A stretch of 63,650 nucleotides of DNA, the filler included, from Candidatus Woesearchaeota archaeon (GTDB taxonomy: Archaea; Nanobdellota; Nanobdellia; Woesearchaeales; B72-G16), in assembly GCA_003650545.1 (NCBI GenBank). It is 3 parts of 3 records of this genome, joined end to end, with 100 filler letters (N's around TTAATTAATTAA, not from the genome) between each part and the next. Parts side by side here need not be neighbours in the genome. Positions count along the whole stretch, not along the records: positions 25,134 to 50,084 come from QMQO01000020.1; 2 more parts are not named here. One strand, 5' to 3'. Of this stretch, positions 4,915 through 60,569 are shown one piece after another (within the stretch, counting starts at the first letter, position 1; every line of letters starts with the position of its first letter). The position numbers and the translations under genes were made by a program. The notes beneath the pieces were generated by a model. That model made no database searches. It was given only the letters and a program-made list of their open reading frames with translations, and had not been told where the DNA came from.

Positions 4915-4915
4915 T

Positions 4916-7638: not shown

Positions 7639-7824
7639 TTTTAATCACTCTTTATCTTGACTCTTTTTAAGCTTCTTTTGATTCTTTTTAACTTTTTTTT
7701 GACTCTTTTTAAGTTCTTTTGGTTTTATTTATTCTTTTTTGATTTTGTTTGAATGTAAAACATTCTATTATTCTATTCATTATTCTATTTATTATTCCAT
7801 TTATTATTTATTTTATTTATTATT

Positions 7825-9621
7825 CTATTGAGACTTGTGTTTTTCCAACGCTAGGTTATGAGCTTTTGTGTAATTTTGTATTAATAAACGCCAATCTGCC
7901 AGGTTGGATGTGTTCTTTGCATTTATTTTTTCTCTAACACGATCTTCACGGTTAAGCTTACAAAAGTCATATAGAATCTTAGTGAAGTGGGTTATTATCT
8001 CTTCTTCGCTTGTTTTGAAACGTTTCAATACATATATGCCTTGTCCATCTCTTTTCTGATTAATCAGAAAGCGGCCAAAACCTCCTAGGTCGGTTGTTAA
8101 TGAAGGCACGCCAAGTGCAGCTGATTCTAGTGGAGTGTATCCCCAAGGTTCGTAGTAAGATGGAAATAGACCTAAATGGCAACCCACAATTGTATCATAA
8201 TAAGGAAGATCCAATAAACCATCTACGCCAGACAGATAAACTGGATAAAATATGACTTTAACCCTGTCATCTTCTTTGTTGTCTAATCCTGTATCCAAAA
8301 GATTTTTAACAATGATGTCATGCTCTTCTCCTGCCAAAAAGTGCGTTGTTATTGGTGGGTTGCCTTCCTTAACAAAATTTAGCTTTAGCCTTTTCGCTCC
8401 TTTTAAGAAATCTCTATCAAAGAGCTTGCCGGGCTTGCAGAATTTTTTTTCATTTGCAAAATTCTCAAGAGGGTCCATGAAAATTGTATCCAGAATCTTT
8501 AGTTGAAGTGTTGGAAGATAGCGCTCTACAAAATGTTTAACATTGTCATATGTATTTTTGTTCTGAGCAAGCTCTGTCCTTGTGCTTAGAACATCTCTTG
8601 GAATCCAAAAGAATGCAATTATGGTCTTTTTACTTTTTTCTTCTTTTAGCATGTTGTTTAAATTTGCTAAAGACTTTATGAAGATGTCAACACCCTTATT
8701 CTTGAATTCGTAGCGTCCAACGATGAAGAAAATCAGGGTTTCTTCTATATCGAAAAAATAATATGGAAAAAAATAATAAGAGACAAACTCTCGGATTATA
8801 GAACGACTCTCACGGTGTTTTATAGAAAGCTCTTCAAATGTTGGAAATTTATCTGTATCTAGGCCATTTAGAACCAATATATCTGGCTTTTTGCCAAGGA
8901 TTTTTTCTGCTTCTATGCTAGTTATTTCAGACACTGTTGTGAACACTGTTGCATTATGAGCACACGCCTTCTCAAGTTGGTGTTTTGCATTGATGCCAAG
9001 ACTGTATGCTTCTCTGTCAGCATCAAGAGTATCGAGTGTGTTATAAAGCTCTCTTCCAGCACTTGCCATGGTTCTGCCTAATGTGGTCGCGTGGGTTGTG
9101 AAAATCGTTGGTATCTTTCCTGTTAAATAGAGTAAACCTGCTCCTGCTAGCCATTCATGGAAATGAACAACAATCTTCTTTTTATTCAGATTAACGAATT
9201 TTTCAATTAGTTTAGCAGAAGCATAGCTCCACAATACAGGCTCTTCAAAATCCCAACCAGAATTGAGTGAGTCTATACGAAATCGATCCCAAAGTTCTTT
9301 TTTTATGTCATTTTTTCTATTGGCAAATCCAGAGAACTCTATTAGAATTGTTTTTGGCTCTCCCTTGATGTCCCATTTTCCATAATGACAGATTATTCCT
9401 TCTTGGCTTAATTCGTCAAAGATCTTTTGGAATTCAAGAGGAACTTCTTCTTTTGAAAAAACAATCCTTGCTTTTTTTTCAACATAAGGGCCTATTAGAT
9501 AATAAACCTTGTTGATCTCTTTCATCAATGCTGCTTTAGAGACTATGACTGTATGAATCCCTCCAACTTTGTTGCAAACTTCCCATGAAATTTCAAATAA
9601 AACATCTGCATCAGCTTCCAT
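7825..9621 (-). CDS. Glycogen synthase, GT3 family
   Basis: LFEISWEVCNKVGGIHTVI, HFHEWLAG, FTTHATTLGR, GRYEFKNKG, FPSYYEPWGYTPLE. Confidence 0.92.
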   Translation of the reverse strand: MEADADVLFEISWEVCNKVGGIHTVIVSKAALMKEINKVYYLIGPYVEKKARIVFSKEEVPLEFQKIFDELSQEGIICHYGKWDIKGEPKTILIEFSGFANRKNDIKKELWDRFRIDSLNSGWDFEEPVLWSYASAKLIEKFVNLNKKKIVVHFHEWLAGAGLLYLTGKIPTIFTTHATTLGRTMASAGRELYNTLDTLDADREAYSLGINAKHQLEKACAHNATVFTTVSEITSIEAEKILGKKPDILVLNGLDTDKFPTFEELSIKHRESRSIIREFVSYYFFPYYFFDIEETLIFFIVGRYEFKNKGVDIFIKSLANLNNMLKEEKSKKTIIAFFWIPRDVLSTRTELAQNKNTYDNVKHFVERYLPTLQLKILDTIFMDPLENFANEKKFCKPGKLFDRDFLKGAKRLKLNFVKEGNPPITTHFLAGEEHDIIVKNLLDTGLDNKEDDRVKVIFYPVYLSGVDGLLDLPYYDTIVGCHLGLFPSYYEPWGYTPLESAALGVPSLTTDLGGFGRFLINQKRDGQGIYVLKRFKTSEEEIITHFTKILYDFCKLNREDRVREKINAKNTSNLADWRLLIQNYTKAHNLALEKHKSQ

Positions 9622-9739
9622 AAGGAAACAATAATAATAAGATTTGTATATAAATGTTGTATACCACTAAAGAATACTCATTGATATTCATATTCATTGG
9701 TGCTTATTGTACTCATTGGTGCTCCTTGTTAAATCTTAC

Positions 9740-10441
9740 TTAAATCTTCTTAGATTTGCCTGCTTGACTCTGGTTTAAACACCAGTTTTTTTGTTCTTTT
9801 TGAAGGTCTGTGCTCATGTGCATCCTGTTGTGTAAATAAACCTGACTGTAAAATGCACATATATCTAAGCAGGGGTCTGCTAAGCTACAATAGTTGTCTG
9901 GCTTAGTGTAAGAAGCAGGAAGAATAAATTTTGGTTGTTTTGCAAGGCGTACGGCTATAAAATAATCAGATCTACCTTCTAATTTGTTTGTTAGATCTTC
10001 TATTTTTTCAAAAAATGACGATGAAATTTTATTTTCTTTATCTTCTTTAACTTCTTTAATCCTATGATAACCTAGAAGATATGTCCATAATGCTTCATTA
10101 TTTAGGTGTTGTTTTTCTAAAAGAGTGCCCATGTGATATAATATATCATGGTTTGACAAATTTGGGTCGAATTTGTATAACCTATAATTGTAATCAGAAG
10201 CTAGCTTTAGGTAGAATAACGCATCAGAGTTTCTATTTTTGTACATTGCATTTTGCGCTTTATTAAACATATTGCACCTAGAATTTATCAAATCAAAATA
10301 TTCCTCTGAAATTAGGTTATTACTCGCTGTAAATGTTGTATTGTCATCTGAATATTCCGCTGAGATTAAATTATTACTCGCTACTGATAGTGTGATGACG
10401 CATGCTGCTAAAACATTAACTACCATTCTAAGAGTTTTCAA
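9740..10441 (-). CDS. Hypothetical secreted protein, helical/TPR-like, with internal 18-aa-period duplication
   Basis: Signal-like N-terminus; ASNNLISAEY / ASNNLISEEY; TPR-like ILYHMGTLLEKQHLNNEALWTY. Confidence 0.6.
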   Translation of the reverse strand: MKTLRMVVNVLAACVITLSVASNNLISAEYSDDNTTFTASNNLISEEYFDLINSRCNMFNKAQNAMYKNRNSDALFYLKLASDYNYRLYKFDPNLSNHDILYHMGTLLEKQHLNNEALWTYLLGYHRIKEVKEDKENKISSSFFEKIEDLTNKLEGRSDYFIAVRLAKQPKFILPASYTKPDNYCSLADPCLDICAFYSQVYLHNRMHMSTDLQKEQKNWCLNQSQAGKSKKI

Positions 10442-10585
10442 TGTTAAACCTCATTGGAGTTATTATGAAATCAATTATCTTATGAAACCAATTATATGAG
10501 ATCAAAACAAAGTCTATAAAAATTTTTTGTCTCTAGTCTTTCGTCTTAATATCATCTTGTCTTAATATCTTCTTATCGATCTAAA

Positions 10586-10644
10586 CAAAAGGTTTATATA
10601 TAAAAGATAATAATGGATAATAATTGATACTAATTTAGTATCAA
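10586..10644 (+). promoter_or_regulatory. Archaeal BRE/TATA promoter followed by a perfect 10-1-10 palindrome (putative operator)
   Basis: CAAAAGG-TTTATATA (TATA 10593-10600); TTGATACTAA-T-TTAGTATCAA at 10624-10644. Confidence 0.6.
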
Positions 10645-10724
10645 CTGATATATAAATTTAATAATAAAATAAAATAGTAAAAATATTTTAAAATTTTAGA
10701 ATAAAAATATATCAAAAATTAAAG

Positions 10725-11042
10725 ATGAAAAAAGAGAGAAAAAAGAGAAAAGAGAGAAAAGAAAAAAAAGAAAGAAGTGATAGAGGAAGTCGGTTGCCTA
10801 ATTTAGCAACTATATTGATGGTAGAAGATGTTCTAAAGAAATGCAAGTACAAATCTGTAAAAATGTCTGAATTGAAAAAGCTCCTTCCTAAACAGGTCAT
10901 GCACCCAACTCTGAAGATTGTGCTTGACTATCTTTGGGAAAGTGGCAAAATAGAATACACGCCAGATGGAATTAGATGGATCTTTATACACCCAGACCAG
11001 AGAAAAAAACTATTGTCGGGATTCATGGAGGTAATTAAATGA
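10725..11042 (+). CDS. Small winged-helix-like hypothetical protein
   Basis: SELKKLLPKQVMHPTLKIVLDYLWESGKIEY pattern; 3' end abuts the GT4 start. Confidence 0.6.
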   Translation: MKKERKKRKERKEKKERSDRGSRLPNLATILMVEDVLKKCKYKSVKMSELKKLLPKQVMHPTLKIVLDYLWESGKIEYTPDGIRWIFIHPDQRKKLLSGFMEVIK

Positions 11043-12322
11043 AAGTGTTGATGCTTGGCTGGGAATTCCCCCCATATAAAAGTGGTGGATTGGGGACTGC
11101 ATGCAAGGATCTGACTAAAGGGCTTTCTAATAATGGTGTAGACGTAACCTTTGTGATGCCACACCACTCTGGTGTAGATGATAGAGAATTTGTCAGAGTA
11201 ATTGGAACAAAAGGAATGAAAATTAAGATGGGTAAACAAGTTGGTATTAAAAAAGTTAATACAATTTTGACTCCATATATGACTAGCAAATCTTATAAAG
11301 ATTCACACAAAAAAATATATGAGATTGATAAAAAAGAAGTATCAGTTGAATTTGATAAAAATCCTAATTATGATTTTATATATGGTAAAGACCTATTTAG
11401 CGAAGTGCATAGATACACAAAGGCTGTTGAAGAACTGGTTAGATCTGAAGAATTTGACATAATACATGCGCATGACTGGATGACATATAAAGCAGGGCTT
11501 GTCATACGAAAAGTTAGTGGAAAACCTTTGGTTATACATATACATTCAACAGAGTACGATAGAACAGCTGATCATCCAAATCAGAGAATTGAGGAAATTG
11601 AAAGATCCGGCTTAGAAAATGCTGATCACATTATTGCGAATAGCAACTTTACTAAAAATAATGTATTAAGACATTATGGCATTTCTCCTGAAAAGATAAG
11701 TGTTGTCCATTGGGGTATTGAACCAGAGAAAAGTTATTGTGATGATGTTAAATTCAAATCGCCATTTGAAGAGAAGATTGTAATGTTCTTAGGCAGAATA
11801 ACCATACAGAAGGGTCCAGACTATTTTGTTGAGGCAGCAAACAAAGTGTTATTGTTTTATCCTAAAGTTAAATTTGTCGTGGTTGGAACTGGTGATATGA
11901 TGCAGAGAATGATTGATAGAGCTGATGAACTTGGCATCTTAGATAAGTTCGTGTTCACAGGTTTTTTGAAAGAGGAAGCAGTGAATAAAGCGTTCAAGAT
12001 GGCTGATATTTATGTGATGCCTTCTGTATCAGAACCATTCGGTCTTGTTGCGTTAGAAGCGCTAAAGAATAAAACTCCGATCATAATTTCGAAGCAAAGC
12101 GGTGTTTCTGAGGTTGTTAAGCATGCCCTGAAAGTTGATTTCTGGGATATAAATGAAATGACAAACAAAATAGTTAATTTGCTAGAACACAAAGAACTAT
12201 ACCAAGAGTTGCAGGAGAATAGTTATGAGGAGGTTAAGAAGTTTAACTTGGACGAGCCTGCAATGAAATGTAAGGATGTCTATGAAAAAATTTTGAAAAC
12301 TTATAAAGGTGATATTAAGTGA
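11039..12322 (+). CDS. Glycosyltransferase family 4 (glycogen synthase-like)
   Basis: MLGWEFPP..SGGLG, HAHDWMT, HSTEYDR, GRITIQKG, MPSVSEPFGLVALEA. Confidence 0.92.
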   Translation: MKVLMLGWEFPPYKSGGLGTACKDLTKGLSNNGVDVTFVMPHHSGVDDREFVRVIGTKGMKIKMGKQVGIKKVNTILTPYMTSKSYKDSHKKIYEIDKKEVSVEFDKNPNYDFIYGKDLFSEVHRYTKAVEELVRSEEFDIIHAHDWMTYKAGLVIRKVSGKPLVIHIHSTEYDRTADHPNQRIEEIERSGLENADHIIANSNFTKNNVLRHYGISPEKISVVHWGIEPEKSYCDDVKFKSPFEEKIVMFLGRITIQKGPDYFVEAANKVLLFYPKVKFVVVGTGDMMQRMIDRADELGILDKFVFTGFLKEEAVNKAFKMADIYVMPSVSEPFGLVALEALKNKTPIIISKQSGVSEVVKHALKVDFWDINEMTNKIVNLLEHKELYQELQENSYEEVKKFNLDEPAMKCKDVYEKILKTYKGDIK

Positions 12323-12514
12323 TATCTGTGTTGTCTTGCTTGTCTGCTTTGTTTGAATACTTCCGCTATTATAGAAGATTCGTTTATAAGAGTCATATAA
12401 TTTAAACTGAAGATAAAAAAATGAAAATAATGAAAAAGGAGCAGATTAAAGGAAAAGTTAGAGGTAATACAAGAAGTTATTAGTAAAAAAAGTTATTAGA
12501 AGAGGTGATACGAA

Positions 12515-13741
12515 ATGGTCAAGGTTTGTATGTATTTTCAGGTACACCAACCGTATAGAATGCGTAAATATAACATATTTGATGTTGGAAACAATCAGAA
12601 CTATTTTGATGAAAAGAAAAATGTTGAAATACTAAAGAAGATTTCAAAAAAATGTTATCTCCCAACAAATGCTCTTTTATTGAAACTATTGAATAAACAT
12701 GAAAAATTTAAGGTTGCATTTTCATTCTCAGGAGTCTTTCTTGAGCAACTAGAACAATATGAACCAAAGGTTCTAGAAAGCTTTATGAGTTTGGTAAATA
12801 CAGGAAAAGTTGAATTGCTATCAGAAACATACTACCATAGCCTGGCTTATTTATATTCGAAAAGAGAGTTTAAAGAGCAAGTAGATATGCATCGCAATAA
12901 AATTAGAGAATTATTTGGAGTTTCGCCAACTGTTTTTAGGAACACGGAGCTTATATATAATAATGACATGGCTAAGTATGTTGAAAATCTTGGATACAAA
13001 GCCATTCTTTCTGAAGGCGCAGACCATATTCTTGGTTGGAGGAGCCCTAACTTTGTGTATAGACCTATTGGCTGCAACAAGATAAAGGTTTTAATGAAAA
13101 ATTACAGACTTTCAGATGATATTGCTTTTAGATTTTCAGATAGAAAATGGAAAGGGTGGCCTCTTACAGCTGAGAAATTTGCAGGATGGATCAACAATAT
13201 AAACGGGAATGGTGAATGTGTTAATTTGTTTATGGATTATGAAACATTTGGTGAACATCAATGGAAAGATACCGGCATCTTTGAATTTCTTGGAAGATTA
13301 CCTGAAGAAATATTAAAACATCCTGATAATGAGTTTATGATGCCATTAGAGATTGCTAAGTTGAATGCCCGTGATATGATAGATGTACATGAAGTGTTAT
13401 CTTGGGCAGATATAGAGCGCGACTTATCCGCATGGATGGGTAATAGGATGCAACAATCTGCCTTGAAGAGGCTTTACGAACTTGAAAATGATGTTAAGGA
13501 GAGTGGTGACCTGCGTTTGATTGAAAATTGGAGAAGATTGCAAACTAGCGATCATTTTTATTATATGTGTACAAAATGGTTTGCTGATGGAGATGTCCAT
13601 AAATATTTTAATCCGTATGACTCTCCCTATGATTCATTTATCGCCTTTGTTAATATTATAAATGATCTAGTTTTAAGACTTAAGAAATTGAAAGAGAATA
13701 AATGGATAAAAGTCAAACAAAGGGGAGCTAAAGTAGCCTGA
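12515..13741 (+). CDS. Glycoside hydrolase family 57 (alpha-amylase type)
   Basis: FQVHQP, ETYYHSL, FRNTELIY, MDYETFGEH, LQTSDHFYYM; GAGGTGA SD. Confidence 0.93.
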   Translation: MVKVCMYFQVHQPYRMRKYNIFDVGNNQNYFDEKKNVEILKKISKKCYLPTNALLLKLLNKHEKFKVAFSFSGVFLEQLEQYEPKVLESFMSLVNTGKVELLSETYYHSLAYLYSKREFKEQVDMHRNKIRELFGVSPTVFRNTELIYNNDMAKYVENLGYKAILSEGADHILGWRSPNFVYRPIGCNKIKVLMKNYRLSDDIAFRFSDRKWKGWPLTAEKFAGWINNINGNGECVNLFMDYETFGEHQWKDTGIFEFLGRLPEEILKHPDNEFMMPLEIAKLNARDMIDVHEVLSWADIERDLSAWMGNRMQQSALKRLYELENDVKESGDLRLIENWRRLQTSDHFYYMCTKWFADGDVHKYFNPYDSPYDSFIAFVNIINDLVLRLKKLKENKWIKVKQRGAKVA

Positions 13742-29882: not shown

Positions 29883-30053
29883 TCCCCAGCTCAAATTTTC
29901 GGCATTCTATAAATATTCTGTTAATCGCTACGCACAAGTGATTACTAGTTCTCTACCAGAGTTATTTTTTTGTGTTTACTATTCAAAAGGTTGCAACCTC
30001 CTAACCAAAAGCTTTTAAATACCGCTTATTATTTAAATCATGGACAAGGGAAA

Positions 30054-32132
30054 ATGGCACTGAAATACAAAACAACAAGAGATATCAAAATACCTAAAAA
30101 CATAATCGATCAAGTCATCGGACAAGATGATGCAGTTGCAGTTATAAAGAAAGCTGCAAAACAAAGAAGACATGTTCTCTTAATAGGAGAACCGGGTACT
30201 GGTAAAAGTATGCTTGGTCTTGGCCTAGCTGAATTATTGCCAAAGGAAAAGCTTGTTGATGTTCTCTCGTTCTTTAATCCGAATGATGAAAACCAACCTT
30301 TGATAAGGACTGTTGAAGCTGGCAAAGGCCGCAACCTCGTTGCTAAGTCAAAACTACATGCGACAGGTGTTTTTCGTGGCTATAATTTCCTGTTATTCAT
30401 TCTTGTAATTATTGCTATGATTGCACCATGGTGGGGGTTTAACCATTATTCCAATATTCCTGGAGGAAATCTTCAGATTGGCGCTATCATGTTTGTTGCA
30501 TTATTCATGGGTGGCATGATTTTCTTGGCAGCATTCATATTATTCTTGAATCTTGGCAGGAAAGCAGGCATAAAGACAAATGCGCCAAAGTTAATAGTTG
30601 ATAACTTTGACAAAAAGAAAGTACCTTTCTATGATGCAACCGGGGCACATGCTGGAGCACTGTTGGGGGATGTACTTCACGATCCATTTCAGTGTTTCTT
30701 CCGTTCTCAAATGATAACAAAACTAACAGGCGGAAAGTTAATGAATGTAGAAATAAATAAAGAAATTAATGACTTATTCAACAATTCTAAAAATTTAGAA
30801 AAGAAAGATGGATACGAAGCAGTTTTTCTAAACAAGAACGATCTTGTGGTTCTAGGTGAATCACAAGGTTCAGTTTCGCCTGTTGATGTTTTATCAGCAA
30901 ACAGACATGATTACGAAGGCGAAATGATAAAACTGATGACTTCGGAAAACAAAGAACTAATAGTTACACCCAAACACAAAATAGCACTCTGGAAAAATGG
31001 GAAAATCGTTTATACTGAAGCTAGAGACATTAAAAATGGTGACACAGTTGTCTCAAAAGCTGAAGATATCATAATAGATGAAGACGATATAATTAATACA
31101 TTCAATAGAAAACAACAGAAACAATGTAAATTATACTATCAAAATTTAGATTCCCAACAGAAGAACAAAACCAGCAAGCACAAAAGAATTGAAGTGTCTA
31201 TAGACCAAAAAATAAGAAAAGCTCGATGGTGGCATACTAGAAATACACCTGATCCAGTTCAAATGATCAATTGGTTAAAGAAAAGAAAGTTACTACCTCT
31301 AAAAATAGATAACATAAAACTGCATCTTATCGCAAGGGTTTTGGGGGCCATGTTTAGCAATAACGGAGGAGTAACTGAAAATCTAAATGAGATTTTTTTA
31401 TCAGGCTCTGATAAGGGAGCGATAGTGAATTTTAAAAAGGACATCGAAACTATTTTTAATCTAAATAAAGATGAAAAGTCACAGATAATTGAAGATAAAA
31501 ACCATAAAAACCATGAGCATTCATGGTACTATCAAAATACTAATAAGAGTATGATCAGATTTTTTTTAGCTCTTGGTTTGCCAATCAGTAATAAAAAAAA
31601 TACTGTGCTAAATGTTCCGCAGTGGATTAAATCCAAAGGTGAACTAGAAGACGAATTCTATGGGTCTTTTTTAGGAAGAGAATTATCATCATCGCATAAT
31701 ATAGATAAAAATGAATCAGTAGAATTGAAAGTAGAAATACCTTCTGAAAATCGAAAGATGTTTTTATACCAACTTGCAAACTACTTGCAGAGAAAAGGTA
31801 TCGAGAGCAATACCACGTATATAAAAAATATAAAAAGAGTATCTGAAAAAAGGCTGTCTGAAGATTTAGTATGTAGATTACGGATAAGTACTAAATTTGA
31901 TAATGTTATCAAATTTTTAATGAAAATAACTCTATCTTACTGTGACTACAAAACAGAAAGATTATTCTTAGCATTAAGAAAACAGGCAAAAGATAAAAAG
32001 AAAAAATATTATTCCTTAATAAATCAAGGCTATGGGGCAGAAAATGTGATGAGATTATTGAAGTTAACTCCCAATTCACTCTATTTGTTGTTAAACTACT
32101 TAGAAGAAAAAAGTGAGGGAGCTACAACTTGA
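30054..32132 (+). CDS. lonB: LonB protease N-terminal part fused to N-intein with degenerate LAGLIDADG endonuclease
   Basis: DQVIGQD, Walker A GEPGTGKS, two TMs, [17 protein letters not shown] then intein Cys1 at 30693; start moved to ATG 30054. Confidence 0.88.
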
Positions 32133-32245
32133 AACTCACAAAACAAACAATAACTGATGTAAAGAAGATTCATTATAAAGGGAAATTATATAATGTTACA
32201 ACTAGCTCAGGCAATATCATCGTTAATGGTGTTTTATGTTCAAAC
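30693..32245 (+). mobile_element. Intein in lonB, split into a 479-aa N part (30693-32129) and a 39-aa C part (32129-32245)
   Basis: DPFQ/CFF N-junction, block [10 protein letters not shown], block F LYNVTT, C-junction [14 protein letters not shown]; same site as Thermococcales Lon inteins. Confidence 0.85.
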
Positions 32246-33490
32246 TCAGGTGGATTAGGAACACCTGCGCATGAGCGGGTTGTTGCCGGTATGATACACA
32301 AAGCAAATATGGGTGTTCTATTCATTGACGAAATTGCTACACTGCAACCCGCAACTCAGCAGGAACTATTAACAGCGCTGCAAGAAGGCAAATATTCTAT
32401 CACAGGACAGTCCGAACGTTCGGCAGGAGCTATGGTTAGGACAGAACCTGTGCCATGTAACTTCATTCTTGTTGCTGCAGGTAATGTTGAAACAGTGCAA
32501 CGTATGCACCCTGCACTGCGTTCTAGAATTAGAGGGTATGGCTACGAGGTTTTTATGTCTGATACGATGAAGGATACACCGGCTAACAGGGATAAGATTG
32601 TTGTGCTGGTTGCTCAGGAAGTTGCCAAGGATAAGAAAATTCCGCATTTTTCGAAAGAAGCTGTTGGCGGCATAATTGAAGAAGCCAGAAGAAGAGCTAA
32701 CAGAAAAGGTCATCTTACATTAAGGCTGCGTGAGTTAGGTGGTCTTATAAGAGCAGCAGGTGATATTGCTGTTGAGCAAAAAGCAAAGGTTGTAGAACTT
32801 AAGCATATAAAGCAAGCATTAAAGATTGCTCGCACATTAGAGCAACAGATGGCTGACAAATCCATCGAGCGGAAAAAAGAGTACGAGGTCATTGTTACAA
32901 CAGGAAAAATTATTGGTAGAGTTAATGGTCTTGCAGTGATGGGATCTGGTGAAACATTCTCAGGGATCATACTGCCAATTGAATCCGAAGTTGTTCCAGG
33001 TGGTAAAGAACGTGCAATTATTGCAACTGGCAAGCTTGGCGAGATTGCGAAAGAAGCAGTGAAGAATGTTTCAGCCATTATTAAAAAATATTTTGGAATG
33101 GACATCAAAGAAAAGTTTGATATTTATGTACAGTTCTTGCAGACTTATGAAGGCGTGGAGGGTGACTCTGCCAGCATAGCCGTTGCAACATCAATTATTT
33201 CAGCTTTAAAAAAAATACCAGTAAGGCAAGATACAGCAATGACAGGCTCGCTATCTGTAAGAGGAGAGGTCTTGCCGGTTGGTGGTATTAGCTACAAAAT
33301 TGAAGCTGCTATAGACGCAGGCATGAAACGTGTTATAGTGCCAAAATCGAATGTGCAAGATATTGTGATTGAGAAAACCAGATTAGAAAGGATCAAGGTT
33401 ATTCCTGTTACTAATATTTCTGAAGTTTTGAAGGAAGTACTTGATTGGACAGGTAAAAAGGATGTTCTTAAGGTGATTATGAAAAAATAA
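32129..33490 (+). CDS. lonB: C-intein fused to LonB C-terminal part (Walker B, sensor region, protease domain)
   Basis: TTG start overlapping the TGA stop, [27 protein letters not shown], catalytic EGDSAS and KIEAA. Confidence 0.88.
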
Positions 33491-33613: not shown

Positions 33614-34729
33614 TTATTTCGGGCACATTCTATTCCAAGCAGTTATCGCAGCTCTTCTGTTATCATACTCATTTTTATGTGCAAACAACCACCTATTCTT
33701 CGCTTGCTCACTACAAGGATTGAATGCAGCAGGTTGTTGTACAGCAGATTGCTGATTATAACCACTTAGACCTGATTGTTGGTAGTTTTGTGGTTGAGCA
33801 GCTGGTTGTTGTTGTGGCTTATTTTTTGCATTTAACTCTTTTTTAAGATGGTTGATCTGCCTTGTGTATTCTGCTTTTATATTTTGGATTTTTTGTTCAG
33901 CAGATTGAATATCTGTTTCTGCTTTAGCCAAGTCTGACCAAACACCAGCCATAATTTTTTCCATTTGTGGTCCATAGCTGTTTAGGGCATTCCATTCCCA
34001 GTCATTAAGACCGTCATCAATTATAATCTGTTCCTGACACTGATCCTTAGATATACTTCTCAAGTTACAGTATGACAAAAACCATTCGCCCAATGTCTCT
34101 CTACCAACAGCAGCATTTGTATACTGTACTAGGATTTCTAGTGAAGCCATGCCTGTTTTCAAGTCATTGTACTCTTTCCAGTCTGCTGCAAGTTTGTCGT
34201 AGTCAGATTGTAGGGCTTCTTTGTTTTCAGGATTATTTGCTAATTGTGCTTTAATATCTACATACTCTTCTGCCCTTGAGCTAAGCGTCTGGATTCTATT
34301 TTTTGTGTACTCACAAGACATTCCTGCATTATAGTTAATATTTGTGTTATCTTTACAATGCTCCTTTGCAAACAATAATGTTCTATCGATAGGTTTAAGT
34401 TCCTCGGACTCTTTTGACAAAACATGCATAGCTCGGATACCTTTTGTCGTTGTCCATCTGTGAAACAAATCGCTTTTATAATAAGTATAAGTCAATATAC
34501 CGCCAGCTATAACAAGCGGTGATAGAACAGACGCGACAATCTTTGTTACTTTTTTCCATTTATCAGCCTCTTCGTCAGATATCTCATGAGCATGCTGTGT
34601 GGTCGATTTGCTTTGGCGAAGAGCTATCCCTGCTTCATCTTTCGCTGTAGTAGCTCTAAAATCTTGTTTACCTCCTCCTTGTCCTGCTGTCATACCGACT
34701 GGTGTAACAGTTTCATTTTCATTTTCCAT
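33614..34729 (-). CDS. Hypothetical single-pass membrane protein with coiled coils and Gln-rich C-terminal linker
   Basis: TM IVASVLSPLVIAGGILTYTYY; heptad-rich segments; PQQQPAAQPQ; GGGGG SD; 26 nt downstream of the MinD-like gene. Confidence 0.7.
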   Translation of the reverse strand: MENENETVTPVGMTAGQGGGKQDFRATTAKDEAGIALRQSKSTTQHAHEISDEEADKWKKVTKIVASVLSPLVIAGGILTYTYYKSDLFHRWTTTKGIRAMHVLSKESEELKPIDRTLLFAKEHCKDNTNINYNAGMSCEYTKNRIQTLSSRAEEYVDIKAQLANNPENKEALQSDYDKLAADWKEYNDLKTGMASLEILVQYTNAAVGRETLGEWFLSYCNLRSISKDQCQEQIIIDDGLNDWEWNALNSYGPQMEKIMAGVWSDLAKAETDIQSAEQKIQNIKAEYTRQINHLKKELNAKNKPQQQPAAQPQNYQQSGLSGYNQQSAVQQPAAFNPCSEQAKNRWLFAHKNEYDNRRAAITAWNRMCPK

Positions 34730-36638: not shown

Positions 36639-39455
36639 ATGATACTATTGTCTCTAGAAGCAAAAGTTAATCAAGAAGCAGCAAAAACTCTGTTCGCTGT
36701 TCCAGAAATATTGCATCTAGAGTTTGCTTTAAATGACACACCTTTTAACACGCAGATACTTGGTATGTTTAACTCAAAAGGTGGTTGTGGTAAGAGCCTT
36801 GTTATTCAAAATACAGCAATAGAGTGCTCCGAGTTTCCAAGCCATAAATGGTGTGCTAGGATTGATAACTTTAATAGTCTTTCACATGGAGAATACACAT
36901 TAGAGTATGAGATTGAATATAAGTTTGGTTGTGAGAAAAAAAATGTTTTAAAACGTAGACAAACAATTAAAATAATTAATGGACAGATGCAGGTGATAGG
37001 TTATGAAGGTAGGGTTTTACCTATGATGGAAAAGATTCCAACAGTTGAAAAGTGGAGTTCTAGCTTTTTGAATCAGAACACATTGTATAATCGATTAATC
37101 TTAAAGGGAAAGGATGGAAGAGTCCTCAAACTTCATAATTATTCCATTAAAGGAATAAACTACACATTGTATAATAAAAACAATTGTGTTGTTAGTTCTG
37201 GTAAATTCGAAGAAAAAGAACCAGAGGACTTAATCATTGACTTGGATTTTGCAATGGGCGCTGCTGAACAACAGTTAAAAGGAATGAAACAAGGCGGTCT
37301 TAAAAATCCTCTAATATACAGAAAGGACTCTAAGAAACTAGTAGATCTACTGTTAAAGAAAGATTTTCGCGGATTTTTTCAAACCATCCAGAAGCATTAT
37401 AACCCTATTAAGTTTACAAACAAGCCCATACCGCCAGCTAAGGTCGGCCATACGTATGATAACGTAACAGTTATAACAACTAAACCAGACGTAAGTCTTA
37501 TGCACGATCCTCAATTTGTGCAGTACATAAAAAAGATCATACAAGGTATTGCTGACACAGGATACTTTGATAGAATTCATATAGATACTGCTGCAAATTT
37601 CTCCCCATTGCATGCTGAAGTGCAGGAGATAACAGACAAGACTTTGGTTTCAGCAAGTTTTGAACCTGTTGACATGTATGGCGGCTATAACTATTTTCAA
37701 GAAGTTTTGAGCTATCATGCTTTAAAATCTTTGCCAAGCATAGGTAGGATTGCAGCGATTGCCTATGATTTCACTAAAGACCAACTAAAAAAACAATTTG
37801 AGTCAGAACTTAAAAAAGAAACAATGAATATTGTTGAAAAATCTCTAAATAAACATTCAAGATATGCAAAGCAACGTATGAAAGATGTTGAAAATTTTTT
37901 GAATAAGGATATATCAAATATACGTCCAGATGTCGCACAAGATATTGACTATAATATGAGAGATGTATTTAGGCAGATATTTTTTAAATACGTACATGAA
38001 AAAAATAATTTCATACAAGATGAATTGAGTCTTGACACAATTGAAAAAGATTTGAAGTCTGTGTCTGCTTTTGAATTAAACAATGATCAAGTTAGAGCTG
38101 CACTCAAAAATAGAAAACTAACAGAGCCTGAGATCGAGCGTTTGGTTAGTTCTGATTCCTTCAAGAACATGCTAGGAATTGATGGAATGACAGACGAAGA
38201 CATAAGGATGGAATACATTAAAAGGGACCTTACCCTTAAAGAGATTGAGCTTTTTGTAAAGCACGAACCACTGAGGAAGATACTCTATTTGCCATGTTTT
38301 GATTTTAGATCTTATGCTTTGAGACTGGGAGAGGCTATAACCGATTATTTAGTTAATCAATACGCTAAGAATGATAACTCATTATACAAAGTTGCTTTTG
38401 AAGTCAAAGAATCTATCAAATCCATAGATTGTCTGGATCACGGGGTTCTTAACAACCTATCATTGAAAGATGATGAAGATACTGTGGCATACTTTGGCCT
38501 GATCGAACATTACAAACAGGCATTCAAGAACATACATCTATTTAGAACAACCAAGCCAGAGCTTCAAGAGCTGTGTGCAGACTTTCAATCTATTATTTCT
38601 TCTATCAGGCAAACTCTAATTGAAGATATTCGTAAAAGAAAACAAACGGATATTGGTTTGGATTTAGTAAATCAAATTCTGGCAATCCACACCACTAATA
38701 ATAAGATCCATGAAGAATACGGAAAAAAAGAAGTTTTAATTGATGTAAGAGACAATAATACAGGAAAGATAGAATCCAGGAGATATCCTTTAACTCACAA
38801 GATTTATGATGATCTGAGAGGAATTTTTCCACTTAAACATGTTATTAGTGCGATGAGTGCTTGCGATGTTTATGCTAAAGAAAATCTCATTCCTTCAAAC
38901 ATACACCCTGCAATTGTTCCTGAGTTTAACAGAAGGAAGGCAGGTGCAGATGATTACAAACTTGTTATAAATATGGAGCCTACGAGCAAGATGTCTGAAA
39001 GGGTAAGCTCTATTTTGGGAGATGACGAAGTGATTGCAGCAGAAGCAGAGGTACATAAGGTTCAAGTTCCCACAAAAGAATTGTTATATGACAGAGCGAT
39101 GTTCTTTAAATATCTTGTATGGAGAGCCTTTGGTTTAAACGGACAGTGTATTGGTTCTATTCCTATAGATCCGCACGTTCCAACAATATGTAAAGAGAAA
39201 GGTTATGCTAGAACATGTTTAAGTGGGTATGGTCCTACTTTTACAGATAGAATGAAATTGGTTGCAGCAGGTGTTAAATACGACCTAAACTCACACGATT
39301 ATTTCTGTACAGTTACCTGTTTGAATGATTCGTCAGGAATCGGCAACATAAATATTGCACAGAAAGCGCTTAAATTATTTAGAATCAAAACAGACAAGAA
39401 AAAGATAGATCTCAGTGTTGTTGGAAAGATTGATATTCACACACCTGTAAAGTAA
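36639..39455 (+). CDS. Giant MinD/ParA-family ATPase with two large insertions
   Basis: FNSKGGCGKS, LIIDLD, FDRIHIDTAA, VSASFEPVD, KLVINM, IGSIPIDPHV spread over 938 aa. Confidence 0.72.
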   Translation: MILLSLEAKVNQEAAKTLFAVPEILHLEFALNDTPFNTQILGMFNSKGGCGKSLVIQNTAIECSEFPSHKWCARIDNFNSLSHGEYTLEYEIEYKFGCEKKNVLKRRQTIKIINGQMQVIGYEGRVLPMMEKIPTVEKWSSSFLNQNTLYNRLILKGKDGRVLKLHNYSIKGINYTLYNKNNCVVSSGKFEEKEPEDLIIDLDFAMGAAEQQLKGMKQGGLKNPLIYRKDSKKLVDLLLKKDFRGFFQTIQKHYNPIKFTNKPIPPAKVGHTYDNVTVITTKPDVSLMHDPQFVQYIKKIIQGIADTGYFDRIHIDTAANFSPLHAEVQEITDKTLVSASFEPVDMYGGYNYFQEVLSYHALKSLPSIGRIAAIAYDFTKDQLKKQFESELKKETMNIVEKSLNKHSRYAKQRMKDVENFLNKDISNIRPDVAQDIDYNMRDVFRQIFFKYVHEKNNFIQDELSLDTIEKDLKSVSAFELNNDQVRAALKNRKLTEPEIERLVSSDSFKNMLGIDGMTDEDIRMEYIKRDLTLKEIELFVKHEPLRKILYLPCFDFRSYALRLGEAITDYLVNQYAKNDNSLYKVAFEVKESIKSIDCLDHGVLNNLSLKDDEDTVAYFGLIEHYKQAFKNIHLFRTTKPELQELCADFQSIISSIRQTLIEDIRKRKQTDIGLDLVNQILAIHTTNNKIHEEYGKKEVLIDVRDNNTGKIESRRYPLTHKIYDDLRGIFPLKHVISAMSACDVYAKENLIPSNIHPAIVPEFNRRKAGADDYKLVINMEPTSKMSERVSSILGDDEVIAAEAEVHKVQVPTKELLYDRAMFFKYLVWRAFGLNGQCIGSIPIDPHVPTICKEKGYARTCLSGYGPTFTDRMKLVAAGVKYDLNSHDYFCTVTCLNDSSGIGNINIAQKALKLFRIKTDKKKIDLSVVGKIDIHTPVK

Positions 39456-40802: not shown

Positions 40803-42704
40803 ATGGATGACGATCTAAAATTCATAGTAGATGTAGCTAGCGAGTACAACCCTCGTTTTAAGAAAGAACTAGTTATAAAAGCATACAATTTTGCTAAGGA
40901 AGCCCATAAAGGTCAAAAACGCATCTCAGGAGAAGATTATTTCGTGCATCCTGTTGAGACTGCAAAAATATTGCTTGAGTTAAAAGCCGATTCATATACT
41001 TTATGTGCAGCGCTGCTACATGATGTGATTGAAGAAACATCTGTAACAAAAGAAGAAGTAGTTAAGATGTTTGGTGACGAAATTGCAGGACTGGTAGAAG
41101 GTCTAACTCATATAGAAAAAATACACTTCAAGAATAAGGAAGACTATACTGCAGAAAATCTCAGGAAGATTTTGCTTGCCACTTCTAAGGATATTCGTAT
41201 AATCTTGATAAGACTATCTGACAGGCTACATAACATGCGGACTTTGAAGTATCTACGCCCAGATCAACAAAAAAGAATAGCACAAGAAACATTGACTATA
41301 TACGCGCCTATAGCTTACAAACTAGGTTTGATGAAGATTAAAGGAGACCTAGAAGATCTTTCATTAAGGTTCTTAAAGCCAGAGGTTTATAAAAAAATCA
41401 CTGAGAGAATCAAAGAGAAGAGAGAAGCACGTGAGAAATATGCAGAGAGAGTTATGGAGTTTCTTAAAGAGAAACTAAAAGAAGAAAATATCCCTGCAAA
41501 GGTTACAGGAAGAGCCAAATATTTCTACAGCATCTATAGAAAGATGACTAAAAGGAATGTGCCTATTGACGAGATCTATGATTTAATCGGCATAAGAATC
41601 GTGACACAGACCATTCCACAATGCTATGCTGCTCTAGGTCTTGTACACAAAATCTGGAGACCTATGCCAGGAAAGTTTAAGGATTATATTTCTGTGCCAA
41701 AAGCAAATGGTTATCAGTCTCTGCACACAACCGTTGTAACAGAAGATGGTCGTGTATTAGAAGTACAGATAAGGACAGAAGAGATGGACCTAATTGCAGA
41801 AGAGGGTATTGCAGCACATTGGCGCTACACAGGCAGAGAGCGTGACAAAAGATTCGACCAAAAAATTAACTGGCTCAAGCAGCTTCTCTATTGGAAATCA
41901 AGTGAGGACGCAAAAGAATTTATAGAAACCTTTAAGTTTGATCTCTTTGAGAAAGAGATTGTTGTGTTTACACCAAAAGGTGATCCAATCTCTCTGCCTG
42001 AAGAGTCTACGCCAGTTGATTTCGCATTTGAGATACACACTAACCTCGGCAAGCAGTGTTCAAAGGCAAAGGTGAATGGTAATATTGTTCCTCTCAATTA
42101 TATCTTGAAAAGTGGGGATATTGTAGAGATAGTAACATCAAACAAGGCAAAACCTAGCAGACAGTGGCTTACGTTTGTTAAAACGAGCAAGGCAAGACAG
42201 AGAATAAAACAAGAACTTGGCATAGAATCTGTAAGATCGTCAAAGCTAAAAGAAAGAGAAGCACAAGGTGTCCTCAGAAACATAATTGTTGAAAGCAGAA
42301 GGCCTGCTAAACTTTCAAAATGCTGCTCGCCAGAGTATGGTGATGAGATCAAGGCTTTCTTAACAAAGGATGGAAAGGTCACAATACATAAAGCTGATTG
42401 CGAGAATATTCACACATTGGAGAAGAAAAAGGAAATCGGAGTAAGGTGGAGAGTCATACCAAAACTTGATTCTACTGATATCATAGTAGTTGTCAGGGAT
42501 AGGGTTGGTATGCTTTCAAATATTTTGACTGTTATTTCTAAAATGGGCATACATATAACTTCTGTTAAGTCAGAGATGAGAGGCGGCAGATTCAAATTAG
42601 TTATTGGCTTAAAGACTAAGGAGAAGTCTGTTGTTAAGCAGATCCTAGATAATCTGCGTGTTCTAAAAGACGTGATTGACGCAAAGATTTCTGACCTACC
42701 TTAA
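40803..42704 (+). CDS. Long RelA/SpoT homologue (HD, synthetase, TGS, ACT domains)
   Basis: H.GQKR.SGE.Y..HP, ALLHDVIE, DRLHNMRT, KFKDY, YQSLHT, EVQIRT, G.AAHW.Y, VFTPKG/TPVDFAF, KCCSP, ACT-like DRVGML. Confidence 0.93.
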   Translation: MDDDLKFIVDVASEYNPRFKKELVIKAYNFAKEAHKGQKRISGEDYFVHPVETAKILLELKADSYTLCAALLHDVIEETSVTKEEVVKMFGDEIAGLVEGLTHIEKIHFKNKEDYTAENLRKILLATSKDIRIILIRLSDRLHNMRTLKYLRPDQQKRIAQETLTIYAPIAYKLGLMKIKGDLEDLSLRFLKPEVYKKITERIKEKREAREKYAERVMEFLKEKLKEENIPAKVTGRAKYFYSIYRKMTKRNVPIDEIYDLIGIRIVTQTIPQCYAALGLVHKIWRPMPGKFKDYISVPKANGYQSLHTTVVTEDGRVLEVQIRTEEMDLIAEEGIAAHWRYTGRERDKRFDQKINWLKQLLYWKSSEDAKEFIETFKFDLFEKEIVVFTPKGDPISLPEESTPVDFAFEIHTNLGKQCSKAKVNGNIVPLNYILKSGDIVEIVTSNKAKPSRQWLTFVKTSKARQRIKQELGIESVRSSKLKEREAQGVLRNIIVESRRPAKLSKCCSPEYGDEIKAFLTKDGKVTIHKADCENIHTLEKKKEIGVRWRVIPKLDSTDIIVVVRDRVGMLSNILTVISKMGIHITSVKSEMRGGRFKLVIGLKTKEKSVVKQILDNLRVLKDVIDAKISDLP

Positions 42705-44872: not shown

Positions 44873-46816
<1,944 letters not shown>

Positions 46817-49397: not shown

Positions 49398-50084
49398 TCA
49401 GGTCATTATCTCTTTAACAATTTCAGCTGCAAGAGAAACGGTTAACCTTTCTTCTATCTTAGGATTAACCTCAACAACATCAATCATCTTTAGGTTACGC
49501 AACAGCTTTAACTTACCAACAATATAAAGAAGCTCTCTGCTTGTTAGACCTCCTGGTTCACAATACCCTGTTCCAGGAGCAAATGCTGGATCAGTCACAT
49601 CAATGTCAATTGATAAATATAAAGCAGGCCAATCTACAACATTCTCCATGATTGTTTCTGTTGTGCTTTGTAAGCTGAGAGAGTATATCTTTTTCATCTC
49701 AAAAGTTCTGATTTTATGATCTAGAATAAAACTCTTTTCCTGTATGTGGACGTTTCTCAGACCAACGAATATAACTTTTCTTGGATCAAGAATGTGCTCT
49801 TCTATTAATTTTAAAAGATAATCTTCATGTGTTTGTTGTTTTGCTGCAGGCATTAGATCAGGATGAGCATCTAAGATTATAATACCTGCATCAGGATTTT
49901 CTCGAGTAAAAGCCTTGAATGTTGCGTATGTAATAGAATGATCACCTCCAAGAACTATCATTTTTTCATTTTGATTGTTTTCATTTTTCTTTTTTATTTT
50001 TATTATTTCTTCGATTATATTATTATTTGATTTTTCAATATTGTTTTTATCAACCTCAATCTCTTCAATGGAAAAGTCTATTTC
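49398..50084 (-). CDS. Agmatinase/arginase-family protein (5'-truncated by contig end)
   Basis: LGGDHS, DAHPD, SIDIDVTDP..APGTG..EPGG, VEVNP; frame stays open from 49961 up to the gap at 50084. Confidence 0.88.
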   Translation of the reverse strand, partial: EIDFSIEEIEVDKNNIEKSNNNIIEEIIKIKKKNENNQNEKMIVLGGDHSITYATFKAFTRENPDAGIIILDAHPDLMPAAKQQTHEDYLLKLIEEHILDPRKVIFVGLRNVHIQEKSFILDHKIRTFEMKKIYSLSLQSTTETIMENVVDWPALYLSIDIDVTDPAFAPGTGYCEPGGLTSRELLYIVGKLKLLRNLKMIDVVEVNPKIEERLTVSLAAEIVKEIMT

Positions 50085-57358: not shown

Positions 57359-57480
57359 CAGGGAAGAGTTGATTAATAATAATGATTAATAATAATTTAT
57401 ACTCTGTGGCCTGTAATAATTCCTGTACAATAATCTTTATAAACAACCTAAATCATCACTTCTTTTTGGGGGTTGATAGA

Positions 57481-59985: not shown

Positions 59986-60569
59986 TGTTTTCAAGCAAAA
60001 AAGTACAAATGATCGAAGAAAAAGTTGAAACGATCAGATTTATAATAGGCGCTTTAAGGAAGGAGGTTGAAGAACAGAATGAACAAATGAGAAAGAATAT
60101 TCAGAACATTTCCAATTGTATCAAAGAACTAAAGGATCATTTTTTAGCGTTCAAAGAGTCCAAAGCTGCCAAACAAATTGACAGAGAATGTGAAAGAGTG
60201 AAAGAAAGCACCTTTAATTTGAATAAGGAGATTATGGATTTCAAGCTGCTGAAAGGTAGATTATACGAAAAGCTTGTTGAACAAATATCAATGGAAATAA
60301 AAGACAAACTGTTCAAACAGCTGGATCAAATTAAGACAGATATAAAGATATATAATGAAGTTAAAGAGAATATCAAAAAGTTGAAGGCTGAGCTAGATAT
60401 GTTGAAGGAAGAAATCACTCAGTTCAGGAAGATTGTGAAGGAAAAAGACTTTGAGTTAACAGGTTATGTTAATAAGATAACTCAGATGGACCAAGAGAAG
60501 TTAAGATTAATGCAGCAGGTCAAGACATTACAGAAATTAGTTGCTGCAGAGAGACGAAAGCAAAGATAG
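59985..60569 (+). CDS. Hypothetical coiled-coil protein coupled to mutS
   Basis: TGATG stop/start overlap; heptad-rich sequence throughout. Confidence 0.7.
   Translation: MFSSKKVQMIEEKVETIRFIIGALRKEVEEQNEQMRKNIQNISNCIKELKDHFLAFKESKAAKQIDRECERVKESTFNLNKEIMDFKLLKGRLYEKLVEQISMEIKDKLFKQLDQIKTDIKIYNEVKENIKKLKAELDMLKEEITQFRKIVKEKDFELTGYVNKITQMDQEKLRLMQQVKTLQKLVAAERRKQR

Follow-up and report, generated by a model that had tools for sequence, protein, structure and literature searches.

Within the window, by which we mean the whole 63,650-nt stretch of DNA analysed and along which all positions are counted, the locus studied here (30054-33490, + strand) holds lonB as two open reading frames, ORF1 (30054-32132) and ORF2 (32129-33490), and the break between them falls inside an intein at the DPFQ/SGGLGTP site (Table 1). 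The start of ORF1 could be either TTG 29970 or ATG 30054 (MALKYK...), and its stop is the TGA at 32130-32132. ORF2 is in the -1 frame with respect to ORF1 and starts at the TTG at 32129-32131, the two ORFs sharing 4 nt (TTGA), and a GAGGGAG motif is found at 32115-32121, in the tail of ORF1 and ahead of the ORF2 start. On its 5' side the ORF2 frame is shut by a TGA at 32114-32116, and therefore a one-base error could fuse the two frames only within the 13 nt from 32117 to 32129. A preliminary description of the locus had placed the intein start after DPFQ at 30693 in ORF1 and its end at 32245 in ORF2, and had pointed to the TTG start with its overlap and upstream GAGGGAG and to the shortness of the stretch in which an error could act; all of these are borne out. 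A sigma-70 promoter scan of the window found no promoters above those of shuffled sequences, the sigma-70 model (like the terminator scan) being inapplicable to archaea, and a tRNA scan of the window found none.

Table 1. Features of the split lonB locus, in positions along the whole window
Feature	Position	Strand	Basis or remark
Possible archaeal promoter with short leader (A/T-rich, TATA-like boxes)	30013-30038	+	Upstream of ORF1 start; inferred from sequence
LonB N-extein, 213 aa; Walker A, two transmembrane stretches, C-terminal HDPFQ	30054-30692	+	Pfam, NCBIfam, PDB profile
Intein N-terminal splicing lobe, IntN residues 1-125; Cys1; block B T-P-K-H at 30966-30977	30693-31067	+	Pfam Intein_splicing, TIGR01445
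LAGLIDADG homing-endonuclease domain and C-terminal helices, IntN residues 126-470, in frame with the lobe	31068-32102	+	Structure model, fold search
LAGLIDADG motif 1	31320-31370	+	Asp replaced by Asn in the window copy
LAGLIDADG motif 2	31656-31691	+	Glu kept
ORF1 tail, variable, 9 aa and TGA stop; bears SD-like GAGGGAG for ORF2	32103-32132	+	Sequence
IntC, 39 aa; TTG start; block F/G region; C-terminal Cys-Ser-Asn	32129-32245	+	Sequence, relatives
LonB C-extein, 414 aa and stop; Ser+1 ([11 protein letters not shown]); Walker B, AAA lid, Lon_C protease domain	32246-33490	+	Pfam, NCBIfam

Neither ORF is a complete Lon. The NCBIfam model of LonB, TIGR00764 (cut-off 516.6 bits), matches ORF1 residues 3-382 at model positions 2-211 with 194 bits and ORF2 residues 38-447 at positions 195-602 with 617 bits; neither ORF by itself gives a full-length match above the cut-off, and model positions 2-602 are covered only by both ORFs jointly. 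In contiguous relatives, positions 3-598 are covered in one stretch. Pfam finds Intein_splicing in ORF1 (residues 230-406, E 6.8e-10), and the LonB AAA-LID together with Lon_C (E 3.5e-32) in ORF2. As already proposed in the preliminary description, Walker A (GEPGTGKS) and two hydrophobic stretches reside in ORF1, and Walker B (VLFIDE) and the GDSAS serine in ORF2, with the intein interrupting the AAA+ module at a point between the two Walker motifs. Among relatives, the protease and ATPase motifs do not vary, and a profile search of the PDB matches ORF1 to Thermococcus onnurineus LonB (4zpx, 3k1j) as far as HDPFQS.

Splicing residues and the endonuclease domain

Judged from its residues, the intein would belong to class 1, with a nucleophile at position 1, a Thr-x-x-His in block B and a C-terminal Asn followed by Ser+1. 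IntN, of 479 aa, begins with a Cys directly after DPFQ; position 1 is a nucleophile in all 118 full-length relatives (Cys in 46, Thr in 43, Ser in 29), and the Thr and the His of block B, TPKH in the window, are each present in 120 of 120. The C-half relatives, again 120 of 120, end in C-x-N, the terminal Asn being followed by SGGLGTP (...CSN/S in the window). The penultimate His of block G and the Asp/His of block F are absent from the window copy: its penultimate residue is Ser, a position held by Lys in 98, Ser in 17, Ala in three and Arg in two of the 120 relatives, and the Asn of LYN in IntC lies at what we take, by eye, to be the position of the block F Asp. These assisting residues are described as variable among inteins (PMC4031507). 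The same source, in its available part, gives the nucleophile of the first step as Cys or Ser, and against it the Thr at position 1 is unusual.

The splicing lobe is all-beta in the structure model, and a fold search with the IntN model retrieved solved inteins (TliVMA 7qss, E 7e-10; PI-PfuI; PI-SceI; I-DmoI). The best of these matches (TliVMA, PI-PfuI 1dq3 and PI-SceI 1vde) have the same combination of Hint lobe and LAGLIDADG domain, but they are contiguous and their identity to IntN is low (9-16%). Family searches with IntC alone gave weak matches only (IF-2 intein model, E 5.7e-5; Hint, E 0.021). A contiguous natural mini-intein of the same family, P0241, has the lobe joined directly to an IntC-like segment; in the alignment its residues 208-333 correspond to the splicing lobe and 348-381 to IntC, and its model has confident beta strands across both intein parts, while the fold search with that model matched Lon structures only.

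The IntN of the window is not half of a mini-intein; it carries a whole, conserved LAGLIDADG domain. The preliminary description had noted neither this domain nor its loss of a catalytic Asp in the window, nor the three-gene form of a sister clade (below). The catalytic Asp of motif 1 is found in 119 of 120 sequences, the window having the single Asn, and the Glu of motif 2 likewise in 119 of 120. In the relatives, both LAGLIDADG helices thus have their acidic catalytic residue, whereas in the window motif 1 lacks it, and to judge from this substitution the endonuclease of the window copy is probably inactive at one site. The sequence profile search of the PDB matched LonB and the KlbA intein, with no endonuclease match. 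We know of no precedent among natural split inteins for a large endonuclease domain on IntN, and so bulky a domain might slow or condition assembly.

This bulk, together with the non-canonical residues in block G (at the His) and at the position presumed to be that of the block F Asp, could speak for halves that associate through their intein pieces without ever being ligated, the intein serving as a dimerisation module or for cleavage only. We consider this improbable. Docking alone needs no nucleophile at position 1, which is kept throughout while swapping among Cys, Ser and Thr, nor the invariant TxxH and terminal Asn, and if approximately 520 aa stayed in place between the Walker motifs, ATPase activity would probably be prevented.

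Conservation of the break among relatives

The break is stably inherited and does not stem from an error. The intein part of ORF1 has, among its 120 best relatives, 113 proteins of 665-761 aa, three fragments and four longer proteins, all four with the same C-terminal motif; N-half relatives of equal length are just 44-54% identical. The 39-aa C fragment ending in Ser-Asn, noted in the preliminary description, recurs as an IntC of 39 aa at the start of 114 of the 120 C-half relatives. An identical break in more than 100 diverged relatives is far beyond chance. Across 74 loci from species-representative genomes, 53 have the layout of the window, 16 are fractured into three genes, two are contiguous and three are cut or unclear; the conserved break that the preliminary description had suggested looking for is therefore present, and the outcome that it had named as fatal, contiguity in all close relatives, is not what these genomes contain. 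In the tree, the type-A clade (46 rows) has an SH-aLRT value of 96. In current records, the N halves are annotated merely as "ATP-binding protein".

At the 50 loci where both halves could be compared, the gap between them is -4 nt in 32 and ranges from -11 to +325 nt in the rest, and the C half is in the -1 frame relative to the N half in 39, in the same frame in six and in the +1 frame in five. The frequent -1 frame with a short overlap (39 of 50) would suit programmed -1 frameshifting or readthrough, producing a contiguous precursor that is spliced in cis. This explanation has very little chance of being correct. The open stretch 32117-32129 contains no X XXY YYZ slippery heptamer, and a ribosome shifting to the -1 frame on the A-run upstream of it would meet the TGA at 32114 immediately. 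Moreover, a stop precedes the C half in the six loci where both halves share a frame, another five loci are in +1, and spacers of 223-325 nt with stops occur in eight of the 50. The C half also has a start codon of its own, exactly 39 codons 5' of Ser+1 in 48 of 50; it is ATG in 49 of 50, the TTG of the window being the sole exception. The conservation of a Shine-Dalgarno-like sequence, also expected in the preliminary description, holds in part: a GAGG/GGAG core lies at -18 to -5 in 22 of the 50 type-A loci, compared with a background frequency of 6.4% of windows.

Still less can be said for a sequencing or assembly error, that is, a base missing near 32117-32129 in a gene whose intein is really contiguous. 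A single-base insertion in those 13 nt would indeed join the frames, and contiguous relatives exist (L064, L065 and P0241), but the same break recurs in the 53 species-representative loci and the 113 protein relatives, from many independent assemblies, with frames and gaps that differ among those loci, and identical or near-identical halves occur on other contigs (P0001, two members on two contigs; P0122, 99% identical and also with a Leu/TTG start). We regard the error as close to refuted. As the geometry of the junction varies between species, neither error nor programmed frameshifting explains the break.

Mean pairwise identity among relatives is 71% for IntC, 66% for the splicing lobe, 75% for the C-extein and 60% for the N-extein, and falls to 17% in the ORF1 tail. 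The pN/pS ratio is 0.24 for IntC, 0.16 for its residues 16-39 and 0.14 for the first 100 extein codons, values that indicate purifying selection on the intein. A decaying pseudogene, with lonB dead in the lineage, might be argued from the lost catalytic Asp and the TTG start of ORF2, but it is already contradicted by the conservation of two intact halves under such selection, of the C-extein across the clade and of invariant protease and ATPase motifs.

Proposed trans-splicing of Lon and its relation to known split inteins

Because the break is conserved across dozens of related species, Lon is most likely assembled post-translationally, and we judge it very probable that lonB is naturally split and that protein trans-splicing unites its two products. 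The product of ORF1 would be the membrane-anchored N-terminal part of LonB followed by IntN, with its splicing lobe of about 125 aa and then the LAGLIDADG domain, and that of ORF2 would be IntC followed by the remaining LonB. Both ORFs are probably co-transcribed, and translation of ORF2 would begin at a separate start, which the TTGA overlap, together with a GAGG-type ribosome-binding site in the ORF1 tail, would couple to the ORF1 stop. The mean charge is +4.1 over IntC residues 1-20 and -4.5 over lobe residues 41-125; we infer that IntC binds the acidic splicing lobe through its basic first half, and that the Hint fold is thereby completed. In a class 1 reaction, Cys1 would then attack the Gln-Cys bond, the acyl group would pass to Ser+1, the terminal Asn would cyclise and the ester would become a peptide bond. 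The expected products are a 627-aa LonB with the junction ...[16 protein letters not shown]... and two freed intein pieces.

Cyanobacterial DnaE, the classical natural split intein, is organised in a comparable way: each of two genes encodes a portion of the extein together with a portion of the intein, blocks B and F lie on opposite sides of the break, and the C piece is of similar size. DnaE also lacks the penultimate His, as does the lonB of the window, and its halves dock by complementary charge, a complementarity also seen in the window family. However, the DnaE halves lie at distant loci and its N piece is a mini-intein half without endonuclease, whereas here the genes are adjacent or overlapping, the N piece has a whole endonuclease, and the host is a protease and not a replication enzyme. 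Nanoarchaeum equitans PolB is a further natural split intein in a small DPANN-type archaeon, although in another host gene, with short pieces lacking an endonuclease and with unlinked halves. The LonB inteins of the Thermococcales (Pyrococcus, Thermococcus), to which the preliminary description had likened this one, do occupy the same site (DPFQ/C...N/SGGLGTP), with a LAGLIDADG domain and a related C-terminal motif (YN-[VL]-TT-x-x-GN...-x-N; P0358 of Pyrococcus abyssi, P0335 of Thermococcus nautili), but they are single polypeptides that splice in cis, while in the window the break separates the endonuclease domain from block F. For LonB, 10 inteins are reported in Euryarchaeota in the available part of Novikova et al. 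(PMC4760082). No description of a split Lon intein was found in the openly searchable literature.

A parallel in gene order is provided by the "fractured genes" that Dassa et al. described in 2009 (PMC2677866). Exactly that three-gene layout is found in the 16 loci of the sister clade (e.g., L053-L063), where an N half bearing a short IntN comes first, then an endonuclease ORF standing on its own, and the C half last. The window differs in that it has no free-standing endonuclease gene between the halves: the endonuclease is fused in frame to IntN, giving two genes and not three, a form that fits as a half-way state of the gene-breaking model of those authors. The small ORF of the fractured loci had no match in the type-A spacers. 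The 26 loci of Dassa et al. are enzymes of DNA synthesis and repair, thought to be mainly of phage, in contrast to the cellular archaea that host the window family, and "Lon" occurs 0 times in the available part of that text (PMC2677866).

Natural split inteins are called rare and are described as split mini-inteins (available parts of PMC10663303 and PMC4760082). They underlie widely used protein-ligation tools, and this family adds one in a protease, conserved over a deep archaeal radiation, with natural variants that have Cys, Ser or Thr as first nucleophile and Ser at +1, and with an endonuclease on the N piece, a feature outside the textbook picture. In genome annotation, Lon may be scored as truncated or missing in these organisms. 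Since one allele occurs side by side in contiguous, mini, half-fused and fractured versions, the route from intein to split gene (Dassa et al. 2009) becomes testable. A bolder proposal, which we put forward only tentatively and hold to be rather unlikely as a whole, is that the split intein of the window is the first representative of a very large class of natural split inteins carried by cellular organisms, a class that spans at least 69 species-representative genomes (Woesearchaeota, Nanoarchaeota and other DPANN archaea) together with two of Heimdallarchaeum and in which a selected and probably still active homing endonuclease is kept on the N piece. If true, a split intein could stay mobile, or its endonuclease could have been co-opted, for example to gate assembly and hence the timing of Lon activity, and a single intein allele would show every stage of gene breaking, from mini and full-length contiguous to half-fused split and three-gene fractured.

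Layout of lonB and conservation of the break

The preliminary description of a broken lonB in the window, with its two reading frames, their overlap, the GAGGGAG and the upstream TGA, is matched by the sequence (see table). ORF1, the N half, likely starts at the ATG (MALKYK...), a choice in line with where its relatives begin, and since the TTG that opens ORF2, the C half, lies one base ahead of the TGA that closes ORF1, the sequence TTGA is common to both. The archaeal LonB model TIGR00764 (NCBIfam) aligns with ORF1 residues 3-382 at model positions 2-211 and with ORF2 residues 38-447 at positions 195-602; Pfam detects an intein splicing domain at ORF1 residues 230-406 (E 6.8e-10); on ORF2 it finds Lon_C together with the LonB lid. 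The solved LonB of T. onnurineus has an insert-free HDPFQS at the point where the intein begins. The pieces are an N-extein of 213 aa, an intein N piece of 479 aa (IntN), an intein C piece of 39 aa (IntC) and a C-extein of 414 aa.

Features of the lonB locus, of the rest of the window and of type B loci
Feature	Coordinates	Strand	Remark
ORF1 open reading	from 29970		
ORF1 ATG	30054		
Intein start	30693		Cys, directly after HDPFQ
First LAGLIDADG motif	31320-31370		
TGA closing the ORF2 frame upstream	32114-32116		
GAGGGAG	32115-32121		seven bases upstream of ORF2 TTG
ORF2 TTG	32129-32131		
ORF1 TGA	32130-32132		
Intein end	32245		Cys-Ser-Asn, then [11 protein letters not shown]
ORF2 end	33490		
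Arginase-family ORF	49401-49961	-	187 aa
Mixed gene regions	3763-13738; 40803-42701; 44876-46789; 57382-63477		
938-aa ORF	36639-39452	+	
371-aa ORF	33617-34729	-	
562-aa ORF	144-1829	+	
~100-aa type B ORF	L053:2298-2606; L069:1190-1498; L057:5679-6044; L074:4930-5124		L074 partial
C5 cytosine methylase	L062:5468-6613	+	PF00145, E 3.7e-100; in 2.3-kb insert
Vsr mismatch endonuclease	L062:7424-7834	-	PF03852, E 1.2e-16; in 2.3-kb insert

Elsewhere in the window, an archaeal context (ribosomal S3Ae, proteasome subunit, FttA, Kae1, RFC) is found with several bacterial-type genes (RelA/SpoT, GyrB, MutS and MutL) and a glycogen-metabolism cluster. The arginase-family ORF covers just positions 87-279 of a 280-position profile, and may be N-terminally truncated or have its true start further upstream; the ORFs of 938, 371 and 562 aa match no Pfam family at E <= 1e-5.

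A protein search with the intein part of ORF1 gave 147 matches; in 113 of the best 120 the length is 665-761 aa, that of an N half by itself, and identity is no higher than 44-54%. Three are fragments and four are longer (934-1200 aa); the longer ones have the same conserved C-terminal motif at their end and are N halves with an extra intein upstream. No contiguous Lon is among the 120. With the first 100 residues of ORF2 as query, the 120 relatives listed share 79-100% identity, and 114 of them start exactly 39 residues before Ser+1, the first C-extein residue, with a sequence resembling M-K-L-T-K-Q.

The break also recurs among the 74 lonB loci found by scanning one genome per species and sorted by phmmer and ORF maps. 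Fifty-three (type A; L001-L052 and L068) have the two-gene layout of the window, four being cut before the C half, and 16 (type B; L053-L063, L067, L070-L072 and L074) have three genes: an N half ending ~25 residues past block B, an endonuclease encoded by an ORF of its own (~350-400 aa), and a C half. L064 and L065 are contiguous (1164 and 1158 aa, each matching TIGR00764 in one stretch), L069 is probably type B, and L066 and L073 are cut.

Junction geometry was measured wherever a type-A case has its two halves, in the window and 49 loci (50 in all). Relative to the N stop, IntC starts at -4 nt in 32 of them and otherwise at -11, -7, -1, +1, +3 (twice), +21, +34, +38, +104 or, in eight, +223 to +325; the relative frame is -1 in 39, the same in six and +1 in five. 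This variety of gaps and frames rules out a sequencing error as the cause of the split, and it also rules out a programmed frameshift, for which, in addition, no slippery heptamer is present at 32117-32129, the only stretch of the window where a shift could work. The split of lonB is real. The IntC start codon is ATG in 49 of the 50 cases, TTG occurring only in the window, and GAGG or GGAG lies 5-18 nt ahead of it in 22, against 6.4% of background windows, an enrichment consistent with a ribosome-binding site inside the gene upstream. The eight loci in which a spacer of 223-325 nt replaces the 4-nt overlap are L007, L018, L032, L037, L044, L045, L050 and L051; some of these long spacers resemble one another in sequence, and in them IntC is preceded by a short extension in frame (MEKI...FKKISEK).

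Splicing residues and the endonuclease domain

In the alignment of 120 N halves, intein position 1 is a nucleophile in every one of the 118 that include the junction (Cys 46, Thr 43, Ser 29), and the block B Thr and His are present in all 120. Every one of the 120 C halves listed ends the intein in Cys-x-Asn, where x is Lys (98), Ser (17), Ala (3) or Arg (2). Mean pairwise identity is 60% for the N-extein, 27% for the first 40 intein residues, 66% for the splicing lobe (41-125), 60% for the LAGLIDADG core, 57% for the C-terminal helices, 71% for IntC and 75% for the C-extein; it falls to 17% in the tail of ORF1, so that this tail is unconstrained as protein. IntC codons from 48 type-A loci give pS 0.79 and pN 0.19 (ratio 0.24), and pN/pS is 0.16 for IntC residues 16-39 versus 0.14 for the first 100 extein codons. 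A basic C piece facing an acidic N lobe is known from DnaE split inteins, and here the charge averages +4.1 over IntC residues 1-20 (window +5) and -4.5 over lobe residues 41-125 (window -3). The departures from the canon are the missing penultimate His and, by an assignment made by eye, an Asn at the usual block F Asp position; both canonical residues are treated as assisting ones in a review (PMC4031507).

In the AlphaFold model of IntN (pLDDT 78.4, pTM 0.74), residues 7-128 form a beta-rich lobe, after which comes an alpha/beta domain. The PDB structures that match the model best are endonuclease-bearing inteins (TliVMA 7qss, E 7e-10; PI-TkoII 2cw7; PI-PfuI 1dq3; PI-SceI), and free LAGLIDADG enzymes, I-DmoI and I-Tsp061I among them, also match (target TM ~0.6). 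The endonuclease part carries a strong positive charge (+22 in the window), and lonB is broken exactly at its C-terminal edge, the usual endonuclease insertion point in inteins. The catalytic Asp and Glu of the LAGLIDADG motifs are each kept in 119 of the 120 N halves. The sole Asp exception is the window, with an Asn and one extra residue in the first motif, a change that probably inactivates one site of its endonuclease. The window's N piece is also the most diverged in a 30-row alignment, with 55% identity to its nearest relative, versus ~79% for its C half.

Related inteins and fractured loci

A search for longer proteins with IntC and extein found 135; regular expressions on the best 120 identified the N junction in 79 and both junctions in 67, with inteins of 165-496 aa, and eight of these 120 are intein-free at the site (FQ/S or LQ/S) and long for other reasons. 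Contiguous Thermococcales inteins at the identical site, named in the preliminary description, were found in Pyrococcus and Thermococcus LonB (for example P0358 from P. abyssi, 333 aa, and P0335 from T. nautili). They resemble the window's family in a related C-terminal motif, ending in Lys-Asn as well, but are contiguous where the window's is split. P0241 (795 aa) belongs to the window's own family and has a contiguous mini-intein: residues 1-333 of P0241 correspond to ORF1 1-336 (62% identity) and 348-795 to ORF2 6-450 (76%), the endonuclease is exactly missing, and its model has confident strands across both intein parts. P0241 suggests that the lobe and the 39-aa piece make a complete splicing domain. 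A second, unrelated-looking family (P0242-P0254 and others; 428-429 aa, ending Thr-His-Asn) is contiguous at the identical site in other Woesearchaeota, Micrarchaeota and Nanoarchaeota. In some relatives further inteins occur in the same gene (L058:1484-4273; P0012, P0050, P0060, P0118, P0208), one at the N-half Walker A motif with LAGLIDADG_3 and one in a 624-aa C half.

In a quick, unrooted maximum-likelihood tree of the C-extein (68 rows; L014, L022, L031, L041, L052, L057 and L066, with <300 extein residues, left out), one clade holds 46 type-A rows (SH-aLRT 96) and its sister (97) holds 16 type-B rows and L073. The contiguous L064 and L065 group with the outlying type-A rows L038 (Parvarchaeota), L046 and L048. 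Layout changes number three, against a shuffle mean of 17.4, and 0 of 200 shuffles are as low. L046 (CP084167.1) and L048 (CP084166.1) are complete Heimdallarchaeum (Asgard) genomes with a two-gene split lonB and an endonuclease-bearing N piece; because a long branch separates them from the DPANN clades, transfer of the split between these lineages is possible.

Type B loci share the layout of the three-gene fractured loci that Dassa et al. (2009) describe, in the portion consulted, for eight DNA enzymes, mostly of phage, but stand in cellular archaea (PMC2677866). The same portion gives a stepwise gene-breaking model, among whose drawn states type A, in which the break affects the 3' flank alone, does not figure; 'Lon' has no occurrence in the paper (PMC2677866). 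Dassa et al. found Vsr-like endonucleases in fractured genes. Among type B loci, the fractured L062 contains 2.3 kb of inserted DNA that encodes a methylase and a Vsr endonuclease and separates the endonuclease ORF from the C half. Between the same two genes, type B loci have a conserved ORF of ~100 aa (40-55% identity among copies), which matches no Pfam family and is absent from type-A spacers.

Proposed assembly and significance

We propose that coupled translation of ORF1 and ORF2 would yield two polypeptides, that IntC would dock on the splicing lobe, and that class-1 trans-splicing of the docked halves would release a 627-aa LonB. With the insertion site inside the AAA+ module, where it falls between Walker A and Walker B, an active LonB should require that the halves be ligated, or at the very least that ~520 aa be removed. 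The original interpretation of lonB as carrying a split intein gains support from the conserved break and the kept splicing residues, from which we infer trans-splicing itself.

LonB with 10 inteins in Euryarchaeota is recorded by Novikova et al., who define split inteins as split mini-inteins and call the DnaE group the largest known (PMC4760082); a 2023 review repeats the definition and the DnaE statement and calls split inteins rare (PMC10663303). No account of a split Lon intein was found in the full texts searched outside subscription journals. In public annotations the N halves appear as 'ATP-binding protein' and the C halves as 'LonB'. From the sequence evidence, we rate the lonB intein as a conserved split intein of a protease, encoded by adjacent genes and keeping a selected homing-endonuclease domain on its N piece.
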